The position numbers were made by a program, and so were the translations under genes. DNA of 64,000 bases from Hyphomicrobiaceae bacterium (GTDB taxonomy: Bacteria > Pseudomonadota > Alphaproteobacteria > Rhizobiales > Hyphomicrobiaceae), in contig JAPXTA010000001.1 of NCBI GenBank assembly GCA_033812735.1, forward strand, positions 22,810-86,809, in the 5' to 3' direction. Below, one piece after another: positions 11,585 to 54,980 of the stretch; positions within the stretch are counted from its first letter, which is position 1, and every line of letters starts with the position of its first letter. Under the pieces are notes generated by a model that saw only the letters and a program-made list of their open reading frames with translations, made no database searches and was not told the DNA's origin.

Positions 11585-12690
11585 CATCTGAATTTGCTCC
11601 GACGTGGTTCTCGCCGCCCGGTTCAACTCTTTCGATGATGATGGCACGCCAGGGCATCAGTGCCCGCGAACTGGCAACGACGCTGAAGGAAGATACGTCA
11701 TTCGTTTTGCGCCTGCTCGCAGGTACAGAGCGGATCGAGAACCAAGTTGCTAAGCTCTTGGCGAAGAACGTCGGAGCTACACCGGAATTCTGGACTTCGC
11801 GTCAGGCCAAATACGACGCCGCATTGGATAGGACAGCGAGCAAGATCGCATCGGACGCGGCGACGACTTGGCTCCGTTCGCTTCCACTCAAAGACATGCG
11901 TGCAGGCGGATGGATTCAACCCGCGACGCGCGAGCATTCGCTTTCAGCCGCGCTTGCGTACTTCGGCGTCACTAGCCCTGAAGAGTGGCGCGAAAGGTAC
12001 GCTGAGCACGCGACCATGTACTCTTACCGCACGTCTCAGTCGTTTGAATCGAAACTCGGTGCGCTAGCTGCTTGGTTGCGCCAGGGAGAACTTCAAGCCG
12101 CTGGGATAAAGTGCGCAAAATGGAACCCAGAGACGTTTCGTTCAGCGCTAGTGGAGATTAGAAGGCTGACCCGACTAAAGAGCCCGTTGATGTTCATGGC
12201 CAGGTTGCGGGATCACTGTGCGTCTTCCGGGGTGGCGGTCGTGTTCATCAAGGCGCCCGCAGGCTGCCGCGCCAGCGGTGCAACTCGCTTCATCAGTCGT
12301 GACAAGGCGATGCTCATTCTGAGCTTCAGGCACCTCTCTGATGATCATTTCTGGTTTTCATTCTTCCACGAGGCGGGGCATCTGCTTCTGCATGGTTACG
12401 ACTCGACGTTTGTCGACGGCGATGCTGCGGAAACCACAGAGAAAGAGAAGGAAGCAAATCACTTCGCTGCCGGGACGTTGATCCCGCTTCCGGAGCGAGG
12501 GCACCTTGAACGGTTGCGCGCGGACGTGAATAGCGTTGTCCGCTTCGCCGTATCGATCGGAATTTCACCTGGTATTGTGGTGGGGCAAATGCAGCATGGG
12601 GGGCTGTTGGGACCAAACCAACTGAATGGATTGAAGCGTCGCTACACATGGGACGAAGTGCAGAAGGCTGTCGATCAGCTCAGCCTTTGA
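11581..12690 (+). CDS. HTH (HigA/VapI-like) fused to an ImmA/IrrE-family Zn-metallopeptidase domain
   Basis: The N-terminal segment PGSTLSMMMARQGISARELA...ATPEFWTSRQAKYD is a HigA/VapI-type HTH. The C-terminal segment FFHEAGHLLLH (HExxH) followed by EKEANHFAAGTLIP is typical of COG2856 peptidases. Confidence 0.8.
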   Translation: MTSEFAPTWFSPPGSTLSMMMARQGISARELATTLKEDTSFVLRLLAGTERIENQVAKLLAKNVGATPEFWTSRQAKYDAALDRTASKIASDAATTWLRSLPLKDMRAGGWIQPATREHSLSAALAYFGVTSPEEWRERYAEHATMYSYRTSQSFESKLGALAAWLRQGELQAAGIKCAKWNPETFRSALVEIRRLTRLKSPLMFMARLRDHCASSGVAVVFIKAPAGCRASGATRFISRDKAMLILSFRHLSDDHFWFSFFHEAGHLLLHGYDSTFVDGDAAETTEKEKEANHFAAGTLIPLPERGHLERLRADVNSVVRFAVSIGISPGIVVGQMQHGGLLGPNQLNGLKRRYTWDEVQKAVDQLSL

Positions 12691-13600
12691 AATGCACAAA
12701 GACATCGGGGCTTTTCTGCCAGTTGCAGAGAGAGTCCTCCATAGCCTGCATACCGATGTTGAGATCGGCGTTGAGCTCAATCGTCCAGACATCGAGGTCT
12801 CTCACCGATAGCAGGGCCTTGCGATCATTGCCGAACAGGAGACGCGCTCCAGCGACGGGGCCCGTAGCACCCTTGAGGTAAGCTGACCCTGGCGTAATGG
12901 GCGCAAGGTCCAATCGACCCACGAGGGCCAGAAAGTCGAACTTTCCAAGCCGCCCGAACTGCCGGACATTCATGTCCCGATAGAAGGCATCAAATATCGA
13001 GTTGGGATCGTTCCCGCCTGCCTGCACCAGCCGCGCGACAGTCTGCCGATGTGCGCCCCCTGGTCCGATCCACTCCAAATAGCTTTGGAAAACCTTATCG
13101 GTTCCCTCATCGGAATCAGTTCTAAGCGAAGCGTATTTGCGATGGTTTCCAAAGGCGCCCCCAATGCGGTCCTGGTGATTTGTCAGCCAAACAACGAATG
13201 CTTGCGGATCGTTGCTGTAAACGGGCCACGTCCAAGTTCTACACCCAAGCCCTGAGTAAACGTCACGCAGGCGACGCCAACCGTGACGGCCGTGTTTCCC
13301 GAAGTGGACGGACAGAAACGTGATCCAAAACGCTTCATCCAAATCGCCATTTCGATGATGCAGGATGGCCGCTCGCTCTGGGTCGAATAGATCGTTGTTG
13401 GGATCAACGCGATCGGCACTCAGAGGACGGCGCCTGAGCAACGCTGTGTACTCAAGCCTTCGCAAACTTGCGACCATCTGCCAAGCAAGCGTGTCGCGGC
13501 GAGCGCGCGTAGCTATGCCCGGCAGGGCGCGATGCCGTCGCGCATGTAGCTGAAGCGCGGCTGAGAGGCGGTCCGCCACGTGCTGTCGATTAGGCCACAC
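12680..13600 (-). CDS. Hypothetical 306-aa protein co-translated with the TS-fold enzyme. It may be an aGPT-Pplase-like base-modification protein (tentative).
   Basis: A GTG start at 13600 lies 9 nt after a GAGGA that overlaps the stop of the upstream gene. The protein is basic. The C-terminal block GKFDFLALVGRLDL...GATGPVAGARLLFG reminds me of aGPT-Pplase families, but this is unverified. Confidence 0.5.
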   Translation of the reverse strand: MWPNRQHVADRLSAALQLHARRHRALPGIATRARRDTLAWQMVASLRRLEYTALLRRRPLSADRVDPNNDLFDPERAAILHHRNGDLDEAFWITFLSVHFGKHGRHGWRRLRDVYSGLGCRTWTWPVYSNDPQAFVVWLTNHQDRIGGAFGNHRKYASLRTDSDEGTDKVFQSYLEWIGPGGAHRQTVARLVQAGGNDPNSIFDAFYRDMNVRQFGRLGKFDFLALVGRLDLAPITPGSAYLKGATGPVAGARLLFGNDRKALLSVRDLDVWTIELNADLNIGMQAMEDSLCNWQKSPDVFVHFKG

Positions 13601-46128: not shown

Positions 46129-46545
46129 TCAGCAATTGCCCCCTGCCCCAGGTGCCAGATCTGCATCTGCAATCTCGTATCCGGCGGAACGAAGAGCTTT
46201 CAGGATGATGCATCGCACCGTCGTCTTCTGATCGAGCGCGTCGCGCTTCATCCGGTCGTTGAGAGACTGTGGCAGTCGGATGGTGAGCTTGGTTTGCAGG
46301 CTCGGCTTATCTGCGCCCGTTATCCCGGACGTCCCAGCTAACGCCTGCCGAGCCGTCGAGCTGTCGTCACGTCGAGCTGTCGAAGCGTCCTTCTGTCGCG
46401 ACATTTTGCCGTCTCGCTGTCGGGCTGTCGGGACGGCGGCATCAGGTTTGACGAGCGTTGGCACGTTCATGCTGTCGCTGATGAGATCGATGACTTCGTC
46501 CGAAACATCAGCTGTATTGATCTGGCGGAATTGGGGCTTGGTCAT
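46129..46545 (-). CDS. ParG-like ribbon-helix-helix partition/centromere-binding protein
   Basis: It lies directly downstream of parA. The C-terminal segment KLTIRLPQSLNDRMKRDALDQKTTVRCIILKAL is RHH-like. Confidence 0.55.
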   Translation of the reverse strand: MTKPQFRQINTADVSDEVIDLISDSMNVPTLVKPDAAVPTARQRDGKMSRQKDASTARRDDSSTARQALAGTSGITGADKPSLQTKLTIRLPQSLNDRMKRDALDQKTTVRCIILKALRSAGYEIADADLAPGAGGNC

Positions 46546-47240
46546 CAGGCGGCCGCTCCTTCCTGGCTGGCATGGTCGGAGGAGGTGGCAAACAAGGCTT
46601 GAATATCGGCCTTCAACTCGTCGAGCTCTTCGATGGCTTTAGCGACAGTCGGCCGCTTCCGGTCGGCGAAGTGGGGCGGCAAGCCGGAGAGGCCCATTTC
46701 CTCGTAAGCCGCGCGTTGCATGATCCGCGTGCGAATTCTCGGAAGCTTCAGTCGGATAATTTCGGTGATGGCGAAGGCTTGGGCGGAGGAGGAGAGGGGC
46801 TGCACCCGGTTGAGGACAAGCCGATAGAGCGGAGCCTTTCCCATCGCCTTGAAGAACGAGGTAATGTGCTTGGCGATGCGGGACGCCTCAAAGATGTCTG
46901 CTTCGGTCGGGGACGCTGGAATGAGGGTGAGGTGGGCACGGGCGACGGCATGTGTGAGCGCCCGCTCGTAGGTGCCCGCGACATCGATCAAGATCAGGTC
47001 AGGCGCATCAACTTCGATGACCCGCTCCAGATGGTCGGTCAACTCGGCCGGGTCCGGCTTGGCGAGGGTGATGGCCTCTGGCCGTCGTGTGCCATCGCTG
47101 AACCAGCGGGAAATGGTATGGTTGTTGTCGAGATCGACGATGTGGACGGTTTGTCCCTCGGCGGCCCAGGCGCCGGCCAGGCACCCGGTCAGGGTGGACT
47201 TACCGACACCGCCTTTGGACGAGGCGAGTGTAATGATCAT
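46545..47240 (-). CDS. parA: ParA-family partition ATPase
   Basis: The ATG is at 47240. The deviant Walker A motif is ITLASSKGGVGKST. Confidence 0.9.
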   Translation of the reverse strand: MIITLASSKGGVGKSTLTGCLAGAWAAEGQTVHIVDLDNNHTISRWFSDGTRRPEAITLAKPDPAELTDHLERVIEVDAPDLILIDVAGTYERALTHAVARAHLTLIPASPTEADIFEASRIAKHITSFFKAMGKAPLYRLVLNRVQPLSSSAQAFAITEIIRLKLPRIRTRIMQRAAYEEMGLSGLPPHFADRKRPTVAKAIEELDELKADIQALFATSSDHASQEGAAA

Positions 47241-47484
47241 GCAGTATCCGTTTCGGGGCTGAACACGCCCATAATGAGATGTCCCGACATACCGATGTCG
47301 AGCCGTCATGACAGCGTACCGCCGGGCTTCACGAAGTCCACAACGATTCGCGGCATCACGAATTCCAATTTCCCCTTTCAATTTCAAATCCAGCTGGTGT
47401 TAGAAAGTTATAGACAGTTAGAGAGTTACAGTTGTGGATTTTGGCCGGAAGATGTTGAAATGACTTTCAATGTTTTTCCCGCCG

Positions 47485-47711: not shown

Positions 47712-48752
47712 ATGAGTGCATTGCTGCCCGAACGTCACCCGATCCGCGATTTCTTCATCGAGCTTGATACGGTCGACGTGACGCCGCGTTCGGACATGGC
47801 GTCGATGGGGCATCCGATCTTCTCATTGTCGTCCCAACCTGACATGCGAACGCTACGCTACGAGCACGATCAGACCATCGTCGAGATTCAGCCATCGGCG
47901 AGGGGCCTCGCCACGATCTTCGACAAGGATATTCTCATCTACTGCATCTCGAAGCTGATGGACCGGAAGAACCGTGGTGCCGAGATCGGGCAGGTGGTGC
48001 GCATCACCACCCATGACATGCTGGTTGCGACGAACCGACAGACGGGCGGCATCACTTACGAGCGCCTGGAACACGCCCTGGACCGATTGGCGGGGACGCG
48101 CATCAAGACGAATATCGTCACGGGTGACGAGGTGACGCGCCAAAACTTCGGTCTCATCGAGTGGTACGAGTATAACCGCAAGGGCAGCGGATTTTCTGAG
48201 CGCTTGAAATATCTCGACATCAAGTTGTCCGATTGGCTCTTCCGGACGGTTCAATCCGCCGAGGTGCTGCCGATCAGCCGCGACTACTTCCGGCTTCGGC
48301 GTCCCATCGACCGGCGACTCTACGAAATGGCGCGCAAGCACTGCGGCCGCCAACCATCATGGCGCATTGGCACGGAGCTGTTGCAGAAAAAGTGCGGGTC
48401 GAAGCAAGAGGGCAAGCACTTCGCCGCACACCTGCGCGAACTCGCCCGATCCGACCATCTCCCAGATTATCGGATGACGCTCGACGACGGCAAGGCAGTC
48501 TTCACCCGTCGCCAGGATTTTGCCGAACGCACGACCGCATCAACAAGTTCGACGACGCCGGAAAAGCCGAAGGCCATCCGTATATCAGCCGCGGCCTTCG
48601 AGGAAATGTACGAAATCGCGCCGGGCTGGGACAAATACATGCTGGAGCAATGCTATTTGGCTTGGGCGACTAATAAGGACCCGGCCCGAAACGAGGACAG
48701 CCGCTTCCTGAGTTGGGTCCGCAGCTATACAAAAGGCAAGCTGAGCCCATAG
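47712..48752 (+). CDS. repA: Plasmid replication initiator (Replication initiator protein A / RepA family)
   Basis: It has LLPERHPIRDFFIELD..., GHPIFSLSSQPDMRTLRYEH...VEIQPSARGLATIFDKDILIY. It is adjacent to the iterons. Confidence 0.85.
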   Translation: MSALLPERHPIRDFFIELDTVDVTPRSDMASMGHPIFSLSSQPDMRTLRYEHDQTIVEIQPSARGLATIFDKDILIYCISKLMDRKNRGAEIGQVVRITTHDMLVATNRQTGGITYERLEHALDRLAGTRIKTNIVTGDEVTRQNFGLIEWYEYNRKGSGFSERLKYLDIKLSDWLFRTVQSAEVLPISRDYFRLRRPIDRRLYEMARKHCGRQPSWRIGTELLQKKCGSKQEGKHFAAHLRELARSDHLPDYRMTLDDGKAVFTRRQDFAERTTASTSSTTPEKPKAIRISAAAFEEMYEIAPGWDKYMLEQCYLAWATNKDPARNEDSRFLSWVRSYTKGKLSP

Positions 48753-48925: not shown

Positions 48926-49687
48926 ATGATTAAAAAGAGTGATATTGAAGTGCAACTATCAAAGTCATCATGGATTGAGTCTGCGTCTATCGAGCCGGGT
49001 CGGTATCTGCCGTCAGCGACGAGATCTGGAGTAGAAATTATTGTTCGAAACAAATCGCCATTAGTAATCCGCTGGTGTTCGGTGGATATATTTTACGAAC
49101 ACGCGAAGACTTATTATTGGCGTTCGGACTCGATTTGGCTTGAAGGAAAAGCGGGACCTGAGTTGGCAAATACCAGAATTACCGTCCGAGGCGCCGAGCA
49201 CTTGGCTGTCAATGTGGGTATTATCGCTGTAGGACACTCTCAGACTCGGCGGGTGACATTCGTAAGTAGATATGCAGATAGAGACAAGGCAGGGGGACTT
49301 CCAAAGGATTGTAAACTGCTTCGCGTTTATGGTGAGGATGTCAAAGGCGACAAATTTGTCTTCGATTTGCACAATCGGACGGTCTCTCCAGTCGTTGAAA
49401 CAGATGCTTGGTGCTTCATCGCGAATGCTGCATTCGAAGACGAGGGCCACCCGACGGTCAACGAGTTGCGGCGAGTCCGAGACGAACTATTGCGCCCCAC
49501 TCGCCCCGGTCGAGCCTTCATCAAATTCTACTATCGGCATTCACCGCGCGTTGCGGCCTGGATGGCAACCCGGCCACGGATCAAGCGTGCGACGCGTGCG
49601 GTGCTGACGCCGTTGGCGCGATCGACGCGGGCAGTGTCGGCCCTGCGCCGGGAGGGCTGGCGTTCGCTGTTCCAGAACAATCTGTAG
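48926..49687 (+). CDS. Hypothetical protein with a conserved C-terminal Cys-motif module (paralogue 1)
   Basis: The gene is AT-rich. It has WCFIANAAFEDEGHPTVNELRRVRDELL...FIKFYYRHSP. It is paralogous along its full length to the ORF at 54321-54980. Confidence 0.6.
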   Translation: MIKKSDIEVQLSKSSWIESASIEPGRYLPSATRSGVEIIVRNKSPLVIRWCSVDIFYEHAKTYYWRSDSIWLEGKAGPELANTRITVRGAEHLAVNVGIIAVGHSQTRRVTFVSRYADRDKAGGLPKDCKLLRVYGEDVKGDKFVFDLHNRTVSPVVETDAWCFIANAAFEDEGHPTVNELRRVRDELLRPTRPGRAFIKFYYRHSPRVAAWMATRPRIKRATRAVLTPLARSTRAVSALRREGWRSLFQNNL

Positions 49688-49856
49688 TAGCTGGTGTTGG
49701 CACTGCTGACGATGGTGTCGACCCGCTTCGCTGCCGCCAACATAGCTACTTCTCCGGGCGCATAGCTGAACCGGAGGCCATGTCATCATCGCGCCATCGC
49801 TGCCGGTTGGAATGCGCTGCGACAGCGGACCGTGATGCGGCATCCGGACACGAAAG

Positions 49857-50318
49857 GTGCGGGGCATGGCCAAGACAGAGGCGATGGGCAAGCTGTACGC
49901 GCGGGCGATGGAGGCGCGCATCCGCGCGGAATACGGCTTCATTCTTCCTGACGGCAGTGCCGATCCATCCGAGTTCTTGGCGGCACAGGCGCGCGAGGGA
50001 AACGGGTCGAAGCGGCGGCGCGGAAAACCCGGCAAGCCTAACCGGAAGAATGAGGCACACCCGAATGGTCCGGTGACGCCGCTGGTGTTGAACGATTATC
50101 ACCTGATCTGCTTTGCCGATGCGATGGAGCAGGAGGGCATCACCTTCGTGACCATGACGGTGCGAGCGGATGACGTCCGGGTCGAGGCAACGCCAGCCGA
50201 TGCGACCCGCTACCTGCTGCACCTGCAGGCGAAGAACCGCGAATTGAGCCCGGCCCAGAAGGCCGAATGGACGATGCGCGGCAGCGAGCTGCGCGCATGG
50301 CTGACGCGATCAGTGTGA
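49857..50318 (+). CDS. Hypothetical protein (153 aa)
   Basis: It converges on the recombinase gene and overlaps it by 9 nt. It has a basic central stretch. Confidence 0.4.
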   Translation: MRGMAKTEAMGKLYARAMEARIRAEYGFILPDGSADPSEFLAAQAREGNGSKRRRGKPGKPNRKNEAHPNGPVTPLVLNDYHLICFADAMEQEGITFVTMTVRADDVRVEATPADATRYLLHLQAKNRELSPAQKAEWTMRGSELRAWLTRSV

Positions 50319-50966
50319 CGCGCCGCGGCGCTGGCCAGCCGAGTTCGCCGGTTCCCTTACGCAGGATTGCCAGAACCGCCGAGCGAAGGCGATCTCCTCG
50401 GGGCCGATGACGTCGAGATAGATTTCTGTGGTGCTGAGCCTGGCGTGTCCCATCCAGCGCTTGAGAAGAGTAACGGGCACGCCCGCCTGCAATGCGCCAA
50501 CACCGAAGCCGTGACGCAGGCCGTGAGGGCGTGCCTGATTGCCTATGATGCCGGCATCCTCCATGACGGATTTGACGACCCGCCATCCGGTGACGCGATG
50601 GAACGGCCATAGTCGCTCATGAGCGCGCACGGCGCAGCGTTGTCGCTGGCGCAGATGGAAGATCGCCTCGAGTTCGGCGATGAGGGGAGGCGGCAGCGGT
50701 ACATCGCGCATCACCGCCTTGCGGCGCTTGAGCGTGAGCAGCGTCACGCTGTTCAATTCAAGATCGAAGCGAGACGGGGTGAGGGCGAGCGCCTCGCTGA
50801 TCCGCGCGCCGGACCATGCCAGCATCTCGATGAAAAGCCGCTTGTCCTCAGGGAGTTGCGCGGCGGCAGCAAGAACCCGCTGGCGTTCGCTGCGCGTCAG
50901 ATATTTGCGGCCATGACAATGGCGGGCGCCGTCGTGGCGGCGAGGGTGTGCATCAGAACTGCCCAT
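50310..50966 (-). CDS. Small (218 aa) tyrosine site-specific recombinase of FimB/FimE-like size
   Basis: Catalytic-domain motifs are WSGARISEALAL, HGLRHGFG and MGHARLSTTEIY. Almost no N-terminal core-binding domain is present. Confidence 0.85.
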   Translation of the reverse strand: MGSSDAHPRRHDGARHCHGRKYLTRSERQRVLAAAAQLPEDKRLFIEMLAWSGARISEALALTPSRFDLELNSVTLLTLKRRKAVMRDVPLPPPLIAELEAIFHLRQRQRCAVRAHERLWPFHRVTGWRVVKSVMEDAGIIGNQARPHGLRHGFGVGALQAGVPVTLLKRWMGHARLSTTEIYLDVIGPEEIAFARRFWQSCVREPANSAGQRRGASH

Positions 50967-51098
50967 ATTGTTGCATTCGAAAATATTCTTTTCTTTTCAG
51001 TAACATAGATTGAATGAGCAAGTCATCATCGCCATTTCTTGCCCGTAATGACCCCTCTCCTACCACGCATTAGCAAGGAGCGCAACAATATGGGCAGT
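50958..51098. repeat. Perfect 17-bp inverted repeats flanking a 107-bp AT-rich segment (candidate invertible element)
   Basis: The left arm is ACTGCCCATATTGTTGC (50958-50974) and contains the recombinase ATG. The right arm is GCAACAATATGGGCAGT (51082-51098). A third half-site, TATTGTTGCG (51098-51107), makes a 10-bp palindrome with a 7-nt spacer. Confidence 0.5.
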
Positions 51099-51231
51099 AT
51101 TGTTGCGTGAATACTGTTTTCGTTTCTTATAGTATGTGGTAAATACTTATTAATATAATAACTCGCCGGCCAGTTACTTTAATGTATTGGGAAGTAAAGG
51201 AGGCGCATCGACGACGTGAAGGAGATGACTG

Positions 51232-51768
51232 ATGTTCCGTACTGTTCTTCGTGACGCAACGGCGGGTGTAGCGCTTGCCGGTATCGCCTTGACCGCTCCA
51301 GTAGCCGTTCTGCCTATGAAGGCGGCTGCCCAGCAAGTAGCAGCGAATACTACGGGCGCGCCAACGCCTCCTGCGCCGAATTTTGCGCCCTGCGAGAAGA
51401 TCAAAGACCCGGCCAAGGCTGCGCAATGCTCGCATGACGCCGTCATGCAGAACCTGCGGGAGAGAAACGAGGCGGCGCTGGCACGTCAGAAGGAGGCCGC
51501 TGCTCGTGCGGCAAATGCGGATGCTCGCGCCGCAAATGCCGATGCACGTGTGAAGAACGCAGACGCTCAGGTCGGTTGCGTCAATGACATTTCTGCGCTG
51601 CGTCGCGACCAAGGGTTCGGCGCCAAAGCCACGGAGATCGCTCGAGAAATTGTTAAAGCAAGTGGGCGCCCAGTGGCCGAGATGGATGCGTGCCATTTAC
51701 GAGATGGCATCCGCGCGGGCTTGAAGCAGCTCAAGCTTCTCCCGGGCGATCGCGCATCGCTCAACTAA
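51232..51768 (+). CDS. Secreted/periplasmic protein with a signal peptide and heptad repeats
   Basis: The signal-peptide-like N-terminus is MFRTVLRDATAGVALAGIALTAPVAVLPMKAAA. A 3 x 21-nt tandem repeat at 51509-51571 encodes AANADAR-type heptads. Four Cys residues are present. Confidence 0.6.
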   Translation: MFRTVLRDATAGVALAGIALTAPVAVLPMKAAAQQVAANTTGAPTPPAPNFAPCEKIKDPAKAAQCSHDAVMQNLRERNEAALARQKEAAARAANADARAANADARVKNADAQVGCVNDISALRRDQGFGAKATEIAREIVKASGRPVAEMDACHLRDGIRAGLKQLKLLPGDRASLN

Positions 51769-54320: not shown

Positions 54321-54980
54321 ATGGCCAATGCGACAATAGCGGGTGTCACTGTAAAAACGCGGGGCGTGCAGATTTCGGAGCGAATAACTCAACAAGGCAT
54401 CCTTCCGCCTCGCGATGCGACCGAGATCACAATCGAGAACAACAGTGGCCAGAATATTCGATGGATAAACATAGAAATTGGCTACTACATTCATCGCACC
54501 AGCCAATTCAAGCAGGCTGATGGAACAACTACTTATCTGCACCGTGGTTGGGTTAGCGAGAGAAGAGCACTCCAAAATCTGGAAGCTGGTTCAAGACGAA
54601 CAATTTACTCCGACGATGACAATCCAAACGGCACAATAGCTTTCATCTATGGAGAGTTCACCGGAGGGCAGACATTCAAGTGCGACAAGGGCATAAGATT
54701 TGGGGTAGAGATAAAGCAATCTGGTTGCTTTATCGCAACAGCTGCATATCGTGATCATGATCATCCGTTAGTGATAGAGCTGCGCGGGGTTCGCGATGAG
54801 ATCCTGGTCAGAACAGCAAAGGGAAGACGATTTATTCGCTGGTATTATCGAAATGGTCCGCATTTCGCCGCCATAGTTGCGCCTAGCCCCATTCTCAGAG
54901 CTGCAAGCCGCGCCATCTTGACGCCCATTGCGCAACTTGCCCGGTTGAGGCGTCGGTTCATCGCGCGCAAGATGCCATAA
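54321..54980 (+). CDS. Hypothetical protein with a conserved C-terminal Cys-motif module (paralogue 2)
   Basis: It has GCFIATAAYRDHDHPLVIELRGVRDEIL...FIRWYYRNGP. The N-terminal block EITIENNSGQNIRWINIEIGYYIH matches VEIIVRNKSPLVIRWCSVDIFYEH in paralogue 1. Confidence 0.6.
   Translation: MANATIAGVTVKTRGVQISERITQQGILPPRDATEITIENNSGQNIRWINIEIGYYIHRTSQFKQADGTTTYLHRGWVSERRALQNLEAGSRRTIYSDDDNPNGTIAFIYGEFTGGQTFKCDKGIRFGVEIKQSGCFIATAAYRDHDHPLVIELRGVRDEILVRTAKGRRFIRWYYRNGPHFAAIVAPSPILRAASRAILTPIAQLARLRRRFIARKMP

Follow-up and report, generated by a model that had tools for sequence, protein, structure and literature searches.

Introduction

Phase variation by DNA inversion has been studied thoroughly in enterobacteria, Bacteroides and clostridia, and the closest described counterparts of the element considered here include the fim system (FimB/FimE, fimS) and the RecV- and Tsr-type invertons of Clostridioides difficile and Bacteroides. 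This element lies at positions 50310-51231 of a 64-kb stretch of DNA from a Hyphomicrobiaceae bacterium (hereafter the window, meaning the whole stretch that was analyzed), where the gene for a small tyrosine recombinase abuts a pair of inverted repeats. The region is a member of an undescribed, widespread family of modules that each combine a recombinase with a double site. We consider it probable, at roughly 60%, that these modules form a new family of tyrosine-recombinase inversion switches for which inversion is the selected reaction. The general kind of system is known; what is new is the protein family, the presence of two full palindromic sites at a fixed distance of about 130 bp, the location of a start codon in the crossover spacer and the translation through the sites. 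Full-text literature searches yielded no description of this family, nor of inversion switches in soil, plant-associated or plasmid-borne Alphaproteobacteria, and the DeepInverton paper mentions Alphaproteobacteria in passing only.

As in fim, a tyrosine recombinase of about 200 aa without a separate N-terminal core-binding domain is encoded next to a short regulatory segment bounded by inverted repeats, which is invertible in fim and a candidate for inversion here, and the segment controls (here presumably) a gene for a surface or secreted protein. Unlike the 9-bp repeats of fim with their dissimilar flanking half-sites, the sites in the window are complete 9-7-9 palindromes, and the segment between them measures 107 bp as opposed to 314 bp. 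Further, the recombinase gene points away from the switch and has its start codon in the crossover spacer, there is one recombinase instead of two, and the hosts are Alphaproteobacteria, which carry the modules on plasmids and chromosomes. The invertons of C. difficile (RecV) and Bacteroides (Tsr-type) are alike in another way: their tyrosine recombinases invert promoter segments of 100-300 bp before envelope genes, and modules of one kind recur next to many unrelated genes for surface proteins. However, one recombinase there often serves several distant switches, whereas each candidate switch described here has its own adjacent recombinase; moreover, the sites here are translated, relatives carry the start codon and ribosome-binding site (RBS) of the target on the segment, and inversion itself is deduced from sequence.

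Dimer-resolution and related modules, such as Cre/loxP, XerS/difSL, XerH/difH and the TnpI/IRS of Tn4430, share with this locus the two inverted arms, a spacer of 6-8 bp and the placement of the site beside the recombinase gene. The closest solved folds to the recombinase are Xer proteins (5hxy, 4a8e, 5jk0, 1a0p), and the neighborhood is one of plasmid maintenance. In contrast to the recombinase in the window, which lacks the core-binding domain, their enzymes are two-domain proteins; they use one crossover site per replicon, to which TnpI adds directly repeated half-site accessories, as opposed to two complete inverted sites with identical spacers about 130 bp apart. Finally, shufflons (Rci/sfx) also have sites with 7-bp spacers inside coding sequence, and their inversion changes the end of the expressed protein. 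Shufflons use many sites and swap C-termini, whereas two sites and an exchange of start, promoter and RBS at the N-terminus are proposed here; Rci, at 384 aa, is also larger than the recombinase of the window.

Results

Two inverted core sites abut the recombinase gene

The 17-mer ACTGCCCATATTGTTGC (50958-50974) recurs in the window as its exact reverse complement GCAACAATATGGGCAGT (51082-51098), the two copies bracketing 107 bp and the left one holding the recombinase ATG (complement of 50964-50966). The coordinates and sequences that an earlier note on this DNA had given for the pair are exact. A repeat finder lengthens the inverted repeat to 25 nt at 88% complementarity (50950-50974 / 51082-51106). 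It also returns a perfect 10-bp palindrome around 7 nt, formed by CGCAACAATA (51081-51090) and TATTGTTGCG (51098-51107), so that the third half-site which the same note had placed next to the right arm is real. We term the two 25-bp units the proximal site P and the distal site D (Table 1). Core sites of tyrosine recombinases, loxP, FRT and dif among them, are likewise built of an arm, a spacer and an inverted arm.

On the recombinase strand P reads GCAACAATA (inner arm)-TGGGCAG-TTCTGATGC (outer arm), its spacer lying at 50959-50965 of the + strand. On the + strand D reads GCAACAATA (inner arm)-TGGGCAG (51091-51097)-TATTGTTGC (outer arm), and on the recombinase strand GCAACAATA-CTGCCCA-TATTGTTGC. 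When one flanking base is added on each side (51081-51107), D is a perfect 10-7-10 palindrome; the perfect 17-mer is made up of the inner arm, the spacer and a single outer-arm base. The two spacers are identical at 7/7 positions (TGGGCAG / CTGCCCA), and since they are asymmetric and mutually reverse complementary, the sites are inverted relative to each other, with a start-to-start distance of 132 bp from D to P. The recombinase ATG falls in the spacer of P. The outer arm of P is degenerate, agreeing with the consensus arm at 6/9 bases, and doubles as recombinase codons 3-5; the spacer and this arm together code for the first recombinase codons ATG GGC AGT TCT GAT GCA.

The segment between the sites has a G+C content of 41% against a window average of 60%. 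At up to 3 mismatches the window holds the 17-mer twice where 0.11 occurrences are expected, and 1/100 shuffles gave two matches; the 64 kb contain just the two sites and no further copy. The view of the earlier note that the repeat is not due to chance is borne out by these figures, and by the presence of the same pair in 20 related contigs and of its equivalents in 51 loci. The defining combination of an inverton, a short segment bounded by inverted repeats beside a site-specific recombinase, is found in the window and family-wide. Lying 11 nt outside D, TTTCGTTTC (51118-51126; GAAACGAAA on the minus strand) is like a single site arm, and a similar GAAACTAAAA stands at the same position in the L097 group; TTTCGTTTC could be an accessory binding half-site.

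Matched spacers and drifting arms across the family

At E <= 1e-10, the protein collection contains 1138 relatives of the recombinase. A scan at one genome per species gave 80 loci with homologues that are 46-79% identical, almost all from Alphaproteobacteria (Bradyrhizobium, Hyphomicrobiaceae, Methylobacterium, sphingomonads, Acetobacteraceae and others); about 72 homologous loci (46-90% protein identity) were usable. They lie on small contigs and on chromosomes, and some genomes have several copies. Translations of the upstream regions show a recurrent pseudo-peptide, 'CNTMG..V', which corresponds to the conserved DNA motif GMAAC-N15-GTTKC. To identify site pairs, the region upstream of each gene was searched for its best inverted pair of 25-mers, in register with the internal palindrome.

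By this procedure 51 unique homologous loci carry the two-site layout, with the sites inverted in all of them and a start-to-start spacing of 127-134 bp (modes 130 and 132; one locus at 141). The spacers are identical within a locus in 50/51 pairs despite there being 21 different spacers; when the spacers were re-paired at random 20,000 times, 5.3 pairs matched on average and never more than 14. Between D and the reverse-complemented P, the mean identity is 99.7% for the spacers and 72.5% for the arms. By position, the mismatch counts are 6, 29, 12, 9, 0, 24, 38, 19 and 18 in the outer arm, 0, 0, 0, 0, 1, 0 and 0 in the spacer, and 6, 10, 22, 15, 1, 0, 10, 26 and 7 in the inner arm. In tyrosine-recombinase reactions, strand exchange needs identical crossover regions in the partner sites, while the arms need only bind the protein. 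That the spacers remain matched while the arms drift therefore points to selection for recombination between D and P, and with the two sites inverted, the product of that recombination would be an inversion.

An all-against-all comparison of the flanking open reading frames (ORFs) identified the recombinase, with its site pair, as the sole unit common to the whole family; the genes around the module of the window are common to only 7-13 loci. The polarity of the spacer relative to the recombinase gene splits the loci into two classes, class A, which includes the window, and class B. The reversed polarity of class B is seen in about 19/51 loci, mostly from Bradyrhizobium (L118-L160). We rejected the idea that class B is merely class A in the flipped state, as inversion does not reverse spacer polarity and the promoters are placed differently. 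In class B the recombinase has its own Shine-Dalgarno (SD) motif and ATG outside P, as well as a coupled upstream ORF that crosses P.

Conservation of the module in close relatives

For the closest relatives we compared contigs whose recombinases are 90, 88, 79, 78, 71 and 72% identical to that of the window, along with L006, a metagenome contig found via the 17-mer, and L089, a contig of a Hyphomicrobium metagenome-assembled genome. In 20/20 related contigs, from about 20 samples, the intergenic region is colinear with the window and has the same site pair at the same spacing. Samples with the element include SRR35145720, SRR30113340/41, SRR12808456/59/60, SRR12816583/84, SRR12822864, SRR14825527, SRR1506951 and JGI 3300042201/2, 3300006417 and 3300013502. 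Where the recombinases are 88-90% identical, the non-coding stretch 50967-51231 is about 98% identical, a higher conservation than that of either flanking gene. The spacer varies within this group, being CTGCCCA in the window and TTGCCCA in L089 and L173-L185, and it has altered at both sites together, which points to continuing selection for matching.

The 272-kb contig L006 is homologous to the window only over 11939-13384 (window 49780-51225). This homology covers a 153-aa ORF, the recombinase and the intergenic region, and ends exactly at the RBS of the secreted-protein gene, whose position is taken in L006 by a diverged secreted protein of the same kind; the module therefore seems to be exchanged as a block, or else the secreted-protein gene is under diversifying pressure. 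L006 was the sole true relative among 83 stretches returned by a 17-mer scan of JGI/ENA metagenome contigs, the others being single chance matches. No DNA relative of the region was found among the PLSDB plasmids by megablast or blastn, and a scan of viral contigs (IMG/VR) found no site pair. In some close relatives an AbiEi/AbiEii toxin-antitoxin pair or a Mu-type transposase C-terminal domain adjoins the module (L184 2604-3642; L173 3041-3684), indicating that it occupies varied mobile-element contexts.

A minimal recombinase outside the Fim families

The sole Pfam match of the recombinase is Phage_integrase (E-value 4.9e-19; 69.2 bits against a cut-off of 27.1), over residues 21-185. The catalytic residues R55, K80, H148, R151, H174 and Y183 are all present, and R55, K80, R151, H152, H174 and Y183 are invariant among 42 relatives. 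The first catalytic histidine, at position 148 (HGLRH in the window), is replaced by R or K in the majority of relatives (RGLRH / KGLRH). The AlphaFold model (pLDDT 82) is confident from residue 21, with residues 1-20 disordered, and like Pfam it gives no N-terminal core-binding domain. In sequence and fold, the recombinase best matches the catalytic domains of XerA (4a8e, 5hxy), XerD (1a0p), XerH (5jk0) and a mycobacteriophage integrase; to XerA, XerD and XerH only the catalytic domain aligns.

The earlier note had likened this protein in size to the FimB/FimE-type invertases. Its size and its restriction to a catalytic domain agree with that comparison, but the NCBIfam models of these families fail by a wide margin, with 31 bits against a cut-off of 222 for FimE (NF007371) and 24.3 against 221 for FimB (NF007370), and every other NCBIfam match is likewise far under its cut-off. 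By these scores the recombinase is not a member of the FimB/FimE family, though its predicted way of working is that of a Fim-type minimal invertase.

Table 1. Features of the recombinase module and its immediate surroundings, in window coordinates.
Feature	Position	Strand	Description
Tyrosine recombinase gene	50310-50966	-	218 aa; from the ORF list; Pfam PF00589, catalytic domain only
Proximal core site P	50950-50974	-	9-bp arm, 7-bp spacer, 9-bp arm
Distal core site D	51082-51106	+	9-bp arm, 7-bp spacer, 9-bp arm
AT-rich inner segment, candidate invertible cassette	50975-51081		107 bp
SD-like motif and outward ATG	51075-51110	+	AAGGAG (51075-51080), 9 nt, ATG in the D spacer (51090-51092); from sequence
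Upstream ORF	50952-51005	-	ATGTTACTGAAAAGAAAAGA... (MLLKRKEYFRMQQYGQF*); starts in the inner segment, crosses P
Candidate promoter toward the recombinase	51057-51085	-	-35 TTGCGC (51080-51085), 17 nt, TG-extended -10 TAGGAG (51057-51062)
Alternative candidate promoter toward D and the secreted-protein gene	51039-51066	+	TTGCCC, 16 nt, TACCAC
Divergent neighbor, presumed regulated gene	51232-51768	+	178 aa; predicted N-terminal signal peptide (MFRTVLRDATAGVALAGIALTAPVAVLPMKAAAQQ...)
153-aa ORF	49857-50318	+	Convergent with the recombinase gene and overlapping its 3' end; no Pfam/NCBIfam match

Translation signals and in-silico inversion

In the observed orientation the recombinase ATG has no SD motif, and the ATG in the D spacer, with AAGGAG ahead of it, opens a stub ORF of 6 codons, ATGGGCAGTATTGTTGCGTGA (MGSIVA*). 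Flipping the segment in silico places AAGGAGCGCAACAATATG before the recombinase ORF, bringing AAGGAG to 9 nt ahead of its ATG; the flipped junctions for the window type would be CAACAATACTGCCCATATTGTTGCATTC and AAGGAGYGCAACAATATGGGCAGTTCTG. In class A at large, the ATG is formed by the last arm base and the TG of the spacer, and it serves as the recombinase start at P and as an outward-pointing equivalent at D; an SD-like motif lies 8-10 nt before the outward ATG of D in 21/35 loci, versus 7/35 at P. The peptides that open outward from D in class A are 6-35 aa long and unconserved. The upstream ORF of the window (Table 1) is out of frame with the recombinase ORF, within which it ends after 10 nt. 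Distant relatives keep the first 20 nt of this upstream ORF, and in the L097 group, P0008 and P0014 it forms an in-frame fusion with the recombinase (MLLKRK...CNTMGK...).

Class B differs in its signals. Here a CTTGAT-17-TAnnAn element is followed by GGAG or GGGG, 7-8 nt and a GTG just inside P, which opens a short ORF across P that ends at a TGA overlapping the recombinase ATG. In 8/10 class B loci with this SD-N7/8-GTG arrangement, a long neighbor ORF is open through D and comes into frame with the GTG only after an in-silico flip (L121, L124 and L140, of one neighbor family; L131; and L128, L138, L149 and L159, with Sel1 proteins). The flip yields complete signal peptides, such as MLKQNRPFRCKSFQILAPLILAVVLWSSISTTALA-EF in L124 and MLQDYRPYGFNRLFPTLVIALLWLPPGAKA-QQ in L149. 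As observed, L138 has a stop directly before D and neither ATG nor GTG, L149 likewise has no ATG or GTG, and L124 and L140 have a stop nearby with a TTG at best. Within class A, it takes a flip to give L095 an ATG and a full signal peptide, there being a stop directly before D in the observed state; in L112, it is in the observed orientation that the D-spacer ATG, with its SD motif on the segment, starts the secreted neighbor. Of these loci, L124 and L140 belong to Bradyrhizobium diazoefficiens SZCCT0138, L121 and L138 to Bradyrhizobium genosp. A BDV5028, L095 to B. yuanmingense ALSPC2050 and L149 to Bradyrhizobium sp. 930_D9_N1_4. There are about five independent agreements of frame across the recombination site, which are hard to explain unless both orientations are used.

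As for transcription, the -35 element of the candidate promoter toward the recombinase (51057-51085) is made by the inner arm of D. Alignments examined by eye suggest that its TGnTAnnnn block and the arm-derived TTGCNC are conserved across class A. The oppositely directed candidate at 51039-51066 is a weaker prediction than 51057-51085, the CTTGNCCG and TAnCAC blocks being conserved in the closest relatives only. The promoter that the earlier note had proposed just upstream of the recombinase, TTACTG-N17-TCGAAT, is not supported, its -10 being unconserved: L001 has CTGAAT at this place and the L097 group GCCCTG. A consensus scan likewise returned no promoter. We also rejected an intrinsic terminator formed by the D palindrome, as no T-run follows it.

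Divergent envelope genes and other neighbors

The neighbor presumed to be regulated in the window is a divergent secreted-protein gene, which matches nothing in Pfam or NCBIfam and has its own AGGAG and ATG, 125 nt beyond D. A direct search for a divergent ORF starting within 350 bp of D found one in 54/55 unique loci. The test for signal-peptide hydrophobicity was passed at 27/55 loci, and more of the products appear by eye to be secreted. Pfam domains among these divergent neighbors identify a PEP-CTERM protein, two outer-membrane beta-barrels, Sel1-repeat proteins and a membrane-anchored TIR protein. The invertible promoters of Bacteroides and clostridia similarly have one type of recombinase-plus-site module beside many unrelated envelope genes. 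The occurrence of a conserved module beside many unrelated envelope genes resembles those promoters, and would be unexpected for a dimer-resolution site.

The 153-aa ORF on the other side of the recombinase is co-conserved with the module in close relatives and may or may not form part of it. The secreted-protein gene contains a 21-bp tandem duplication (51496-51537) coding for AANADAR-type repeats. Two further ORFs without a Pfam match flank the recombinase region, at 48926-49687 (+, 253 aa) and 54321-54980 (+, 219 aa), and share a C-terminal block of about 90 aa (CFIA.AA...HP.V.ELR.VRDE.L....GR.FI..YY...P..A).

Discussion

A proposed start-swapping mechanism

The most likely function of the module, to judge from these comparisons, is to invert an expression cassette, some 105 bp long, that separates the gene for the recombinase from a divergently oriented one for an envelope or secreted protein. 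In the proposed mechanism, the 218-aa recombinase would bind the 25-bp sites P and D as dimers and synapse them by looping the 107-bp segment, and strand exchange in the identical 7-bp spacers would invert it. The segment would carry promoter-like elements, with an SD motif at one end and an SD-less start (ATGTTACTG...) at the other. The ATGs of the spacers would stay fixed, and the flip would swap the transcription and translation signals that face the recombinase and the secreted-protein gene at 51232-51768. In the observed state, the recombinase ATG is without an SD motif and is overlapped by the upstream ORF, with the AAGGAG-N9-ATG stub facing the secreted-protein gene; a flip would put AAGGAG-N9-ATG at the start of the recombinase ORF and turn the arm-derived promoter toward the secreted-protein gene. 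We infer that inversion does occur, rarely or with a strong bias toward the orientation seen, and infer likewise the promoter that is used and which of the two states is ON.

A fuller reading of the family, which we regard as an even bet, is that these are undescribed 'start-swapping' switches across the Alphaproteobacteria, including Hyphomicrobium, Bradyrhizobium, Methylobacterium, sphingomonads and others, on plasmids as well as chromosomes. Each would consist of a minimal recombinase, a cassette of about 105 bp and two translated 25-bp sites, with at least 21 matched spacers in use across the family. The promoter, RBS and/or start would be handed from the recombinase to the divergent gene for an outer-membrane, Sel1, PEP-CTERM, TIR or small secreted protein, whose signal peptide would be partly encoded by the site.

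Orientation and other evidence weighing against inversion

Several observations weigh against this account. No flipped copy was found among the 21 contigs of the window group, from about 20 samples. Among the other loci, the inner segments of about 65 related pairs all face the same way with respect to the recombinase gene. The L124 neighbor has about 12 further homologues, whose N-termini are of the observed orientation or truncated, with none of the flipped 'LKQNR' form; the corresponding protein search with the flipped Sel1 neighbor of L149 was flooded by Sel1-repeat proteins. A loop of 107 bp is also short for intramolecular synapsis, Cre needing at least about 82 bp. A strict consensus scan gave no promoter in the window, the assignments having been made by eye. 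The related loci P0122, P0123, P0125, P0128 and P0143 have an upstream ATG, or one that abuts the arm, in the observed orientation. Further, as the neighbor gene in the window starts independently, with a separate RBS and ATG 125 nt from D, the argument from frame fusion pertains to the relatives and the family, and not directly to the window.

The genomic setting of the gene points the same way. It lies about 2-3 kb from genes for ParA (46545-47387) and replication initiator A (47712-48752). On the Komagataeibacter/Acetobacter plasmids L169-L172, homologues with 47% identity stand within a WGR-recombinase-parA-RHH (ribbon-helix-helix) operon beside repA, with three GTAACACTAT-type sites upstream at spacings of about 56 and 90 bp, a site architecture that differs despite the common protein family. 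This operon in the Acetobacteraceae and the parA/repA linkage in the window hint at a role in plasmid maintenance, and such a role is plausible for part of the wider family.

The uniform orientation bears on the rate and bias of switching. As assemblies show the majority state, slow unbiased switching is excluded, since it would have fixed isolates differently; rare or consistently biased switching is compatible with the data, and under FimE, fimS normally has a strong orientation bias. D and P often differ in their inner arms, so that the sites change composition on inversion, which could give the reaction directionality. Additionally, the flip of class A would put a strong SD motif before the recombinase ATG, which may raise the level of recombinase and cause quick reversion, making the observed state the long-lived one. 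The fimS-like invertible segment that the earlier note had proposed is partly supported, by the conserved inverted pair, its spacing, the matched spacers, the envelope neighbors and the flipped-only frames in several relatives, but no contig in the opposite orientation was found.

Alternative explanations

The uniform orientation and the linkage to ParA and replication genes, which relatives share in adjoining rep and par genes, would also be expected if D and P were an operator bound by the recombinase, for autorepression by looping of the 107 bp, and/or a multimer-resolution site with one crossover site and no inversion. The overlap of D with the -35 of the candidate promoter, and of P with the start codon, suits autorepression, and D and P may well act as autoregulatory operators in addition. 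As the whole explanation, however, we consider this unlikely. Resolution needs only like-with-like recombination between plasmid copies, which makes no demand for a spacer shared by D and P; indeed, inverted sites with the same spacer would expose dimers to the risk of harmful inversions. The spacers nonetheless match in all but one of the pairs while the arms drift, and many copies are chromosomal, with several per genome. Both the association with divergent envelope genes and the SD motif and start that come into frame on in-silico inversion would also be left without explanation. A different way to account for the single orientation, now 21/21 contigs of the window's lineage, is that the family truly inverts and the switch has become frozen or vestigial in this lineage, serving as a fixed regulatory region for the recombinase and the secreted-protein gene. 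The degenerate outer arm of P (6/9 like the consensus) and the independent RBS and ATG of the neighbor accord with such a loss. We hold it to be quite improbable, as the spacers and inner arms are perfectly identical, the catalytic residues are intact, the lineage-specific spacer change occurred at both sites together, and the non-coding region is more conserved than the genes.

The remaining explanations dispense with recombination between the sites. The inverted repeat might form a stem in an RNA leader or in single-stranded DNA, hiding the recombinase start or marking a processing or origin site; an RNA over both sites does fold with the copies paired (-60.1 kcal/mol; z-score -4.8), but such a fold is trivial for any inverted repeat. 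Only the central 7 bp are kept complementary, the arms often mismatching without compensation, whereas a long-range stem would constrain the arms like the center. Each site is, moreover, itself palindromic, which a long-range stem does not require, and no Rfam family scored above threshold, the matches being sub-threshold snoRNA noise; a stem as the basis of the conservation is thus highly improbable. Even less can be said for a chance repeat, or for a miniature inverted-repeat transposable element (MITE)-like insertion at the recombinase start, which the pair resembles in its overall size (141 bp) and 17-bp terminal inverted repeats. The absence of another copy in the window and the low chance expectation speak against both, and the same layout in 51 unique diverged loci with co-varying spacers effectively refutes them. 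Copy amplification of the 2-micron type was rejected by reasoning, as a separation of 132 bp yields no useful replication asymmetry.

Implications

If the modules do flip, as we think probable, they would provide a general route by which Bradyrhizobium, Hyphomicrobium, Methylobacterium and the plasmids of such bacteria vary their envelope and secreted proteins, with a bearing on host interaction, phage resistance and plasmid biology. Their anatomy is unusual, in that the start codon of the recombinase lies in the crossover spacer and, in relatives, the RBS and start of the target would be on the segment, with the signal peptide reading through the site. The combination of a recombinase of about 200 aa, 25-bp sites and many matched 7-bp spacers also makes the modules candidates for compact and possibly orthogonal DNA switches.

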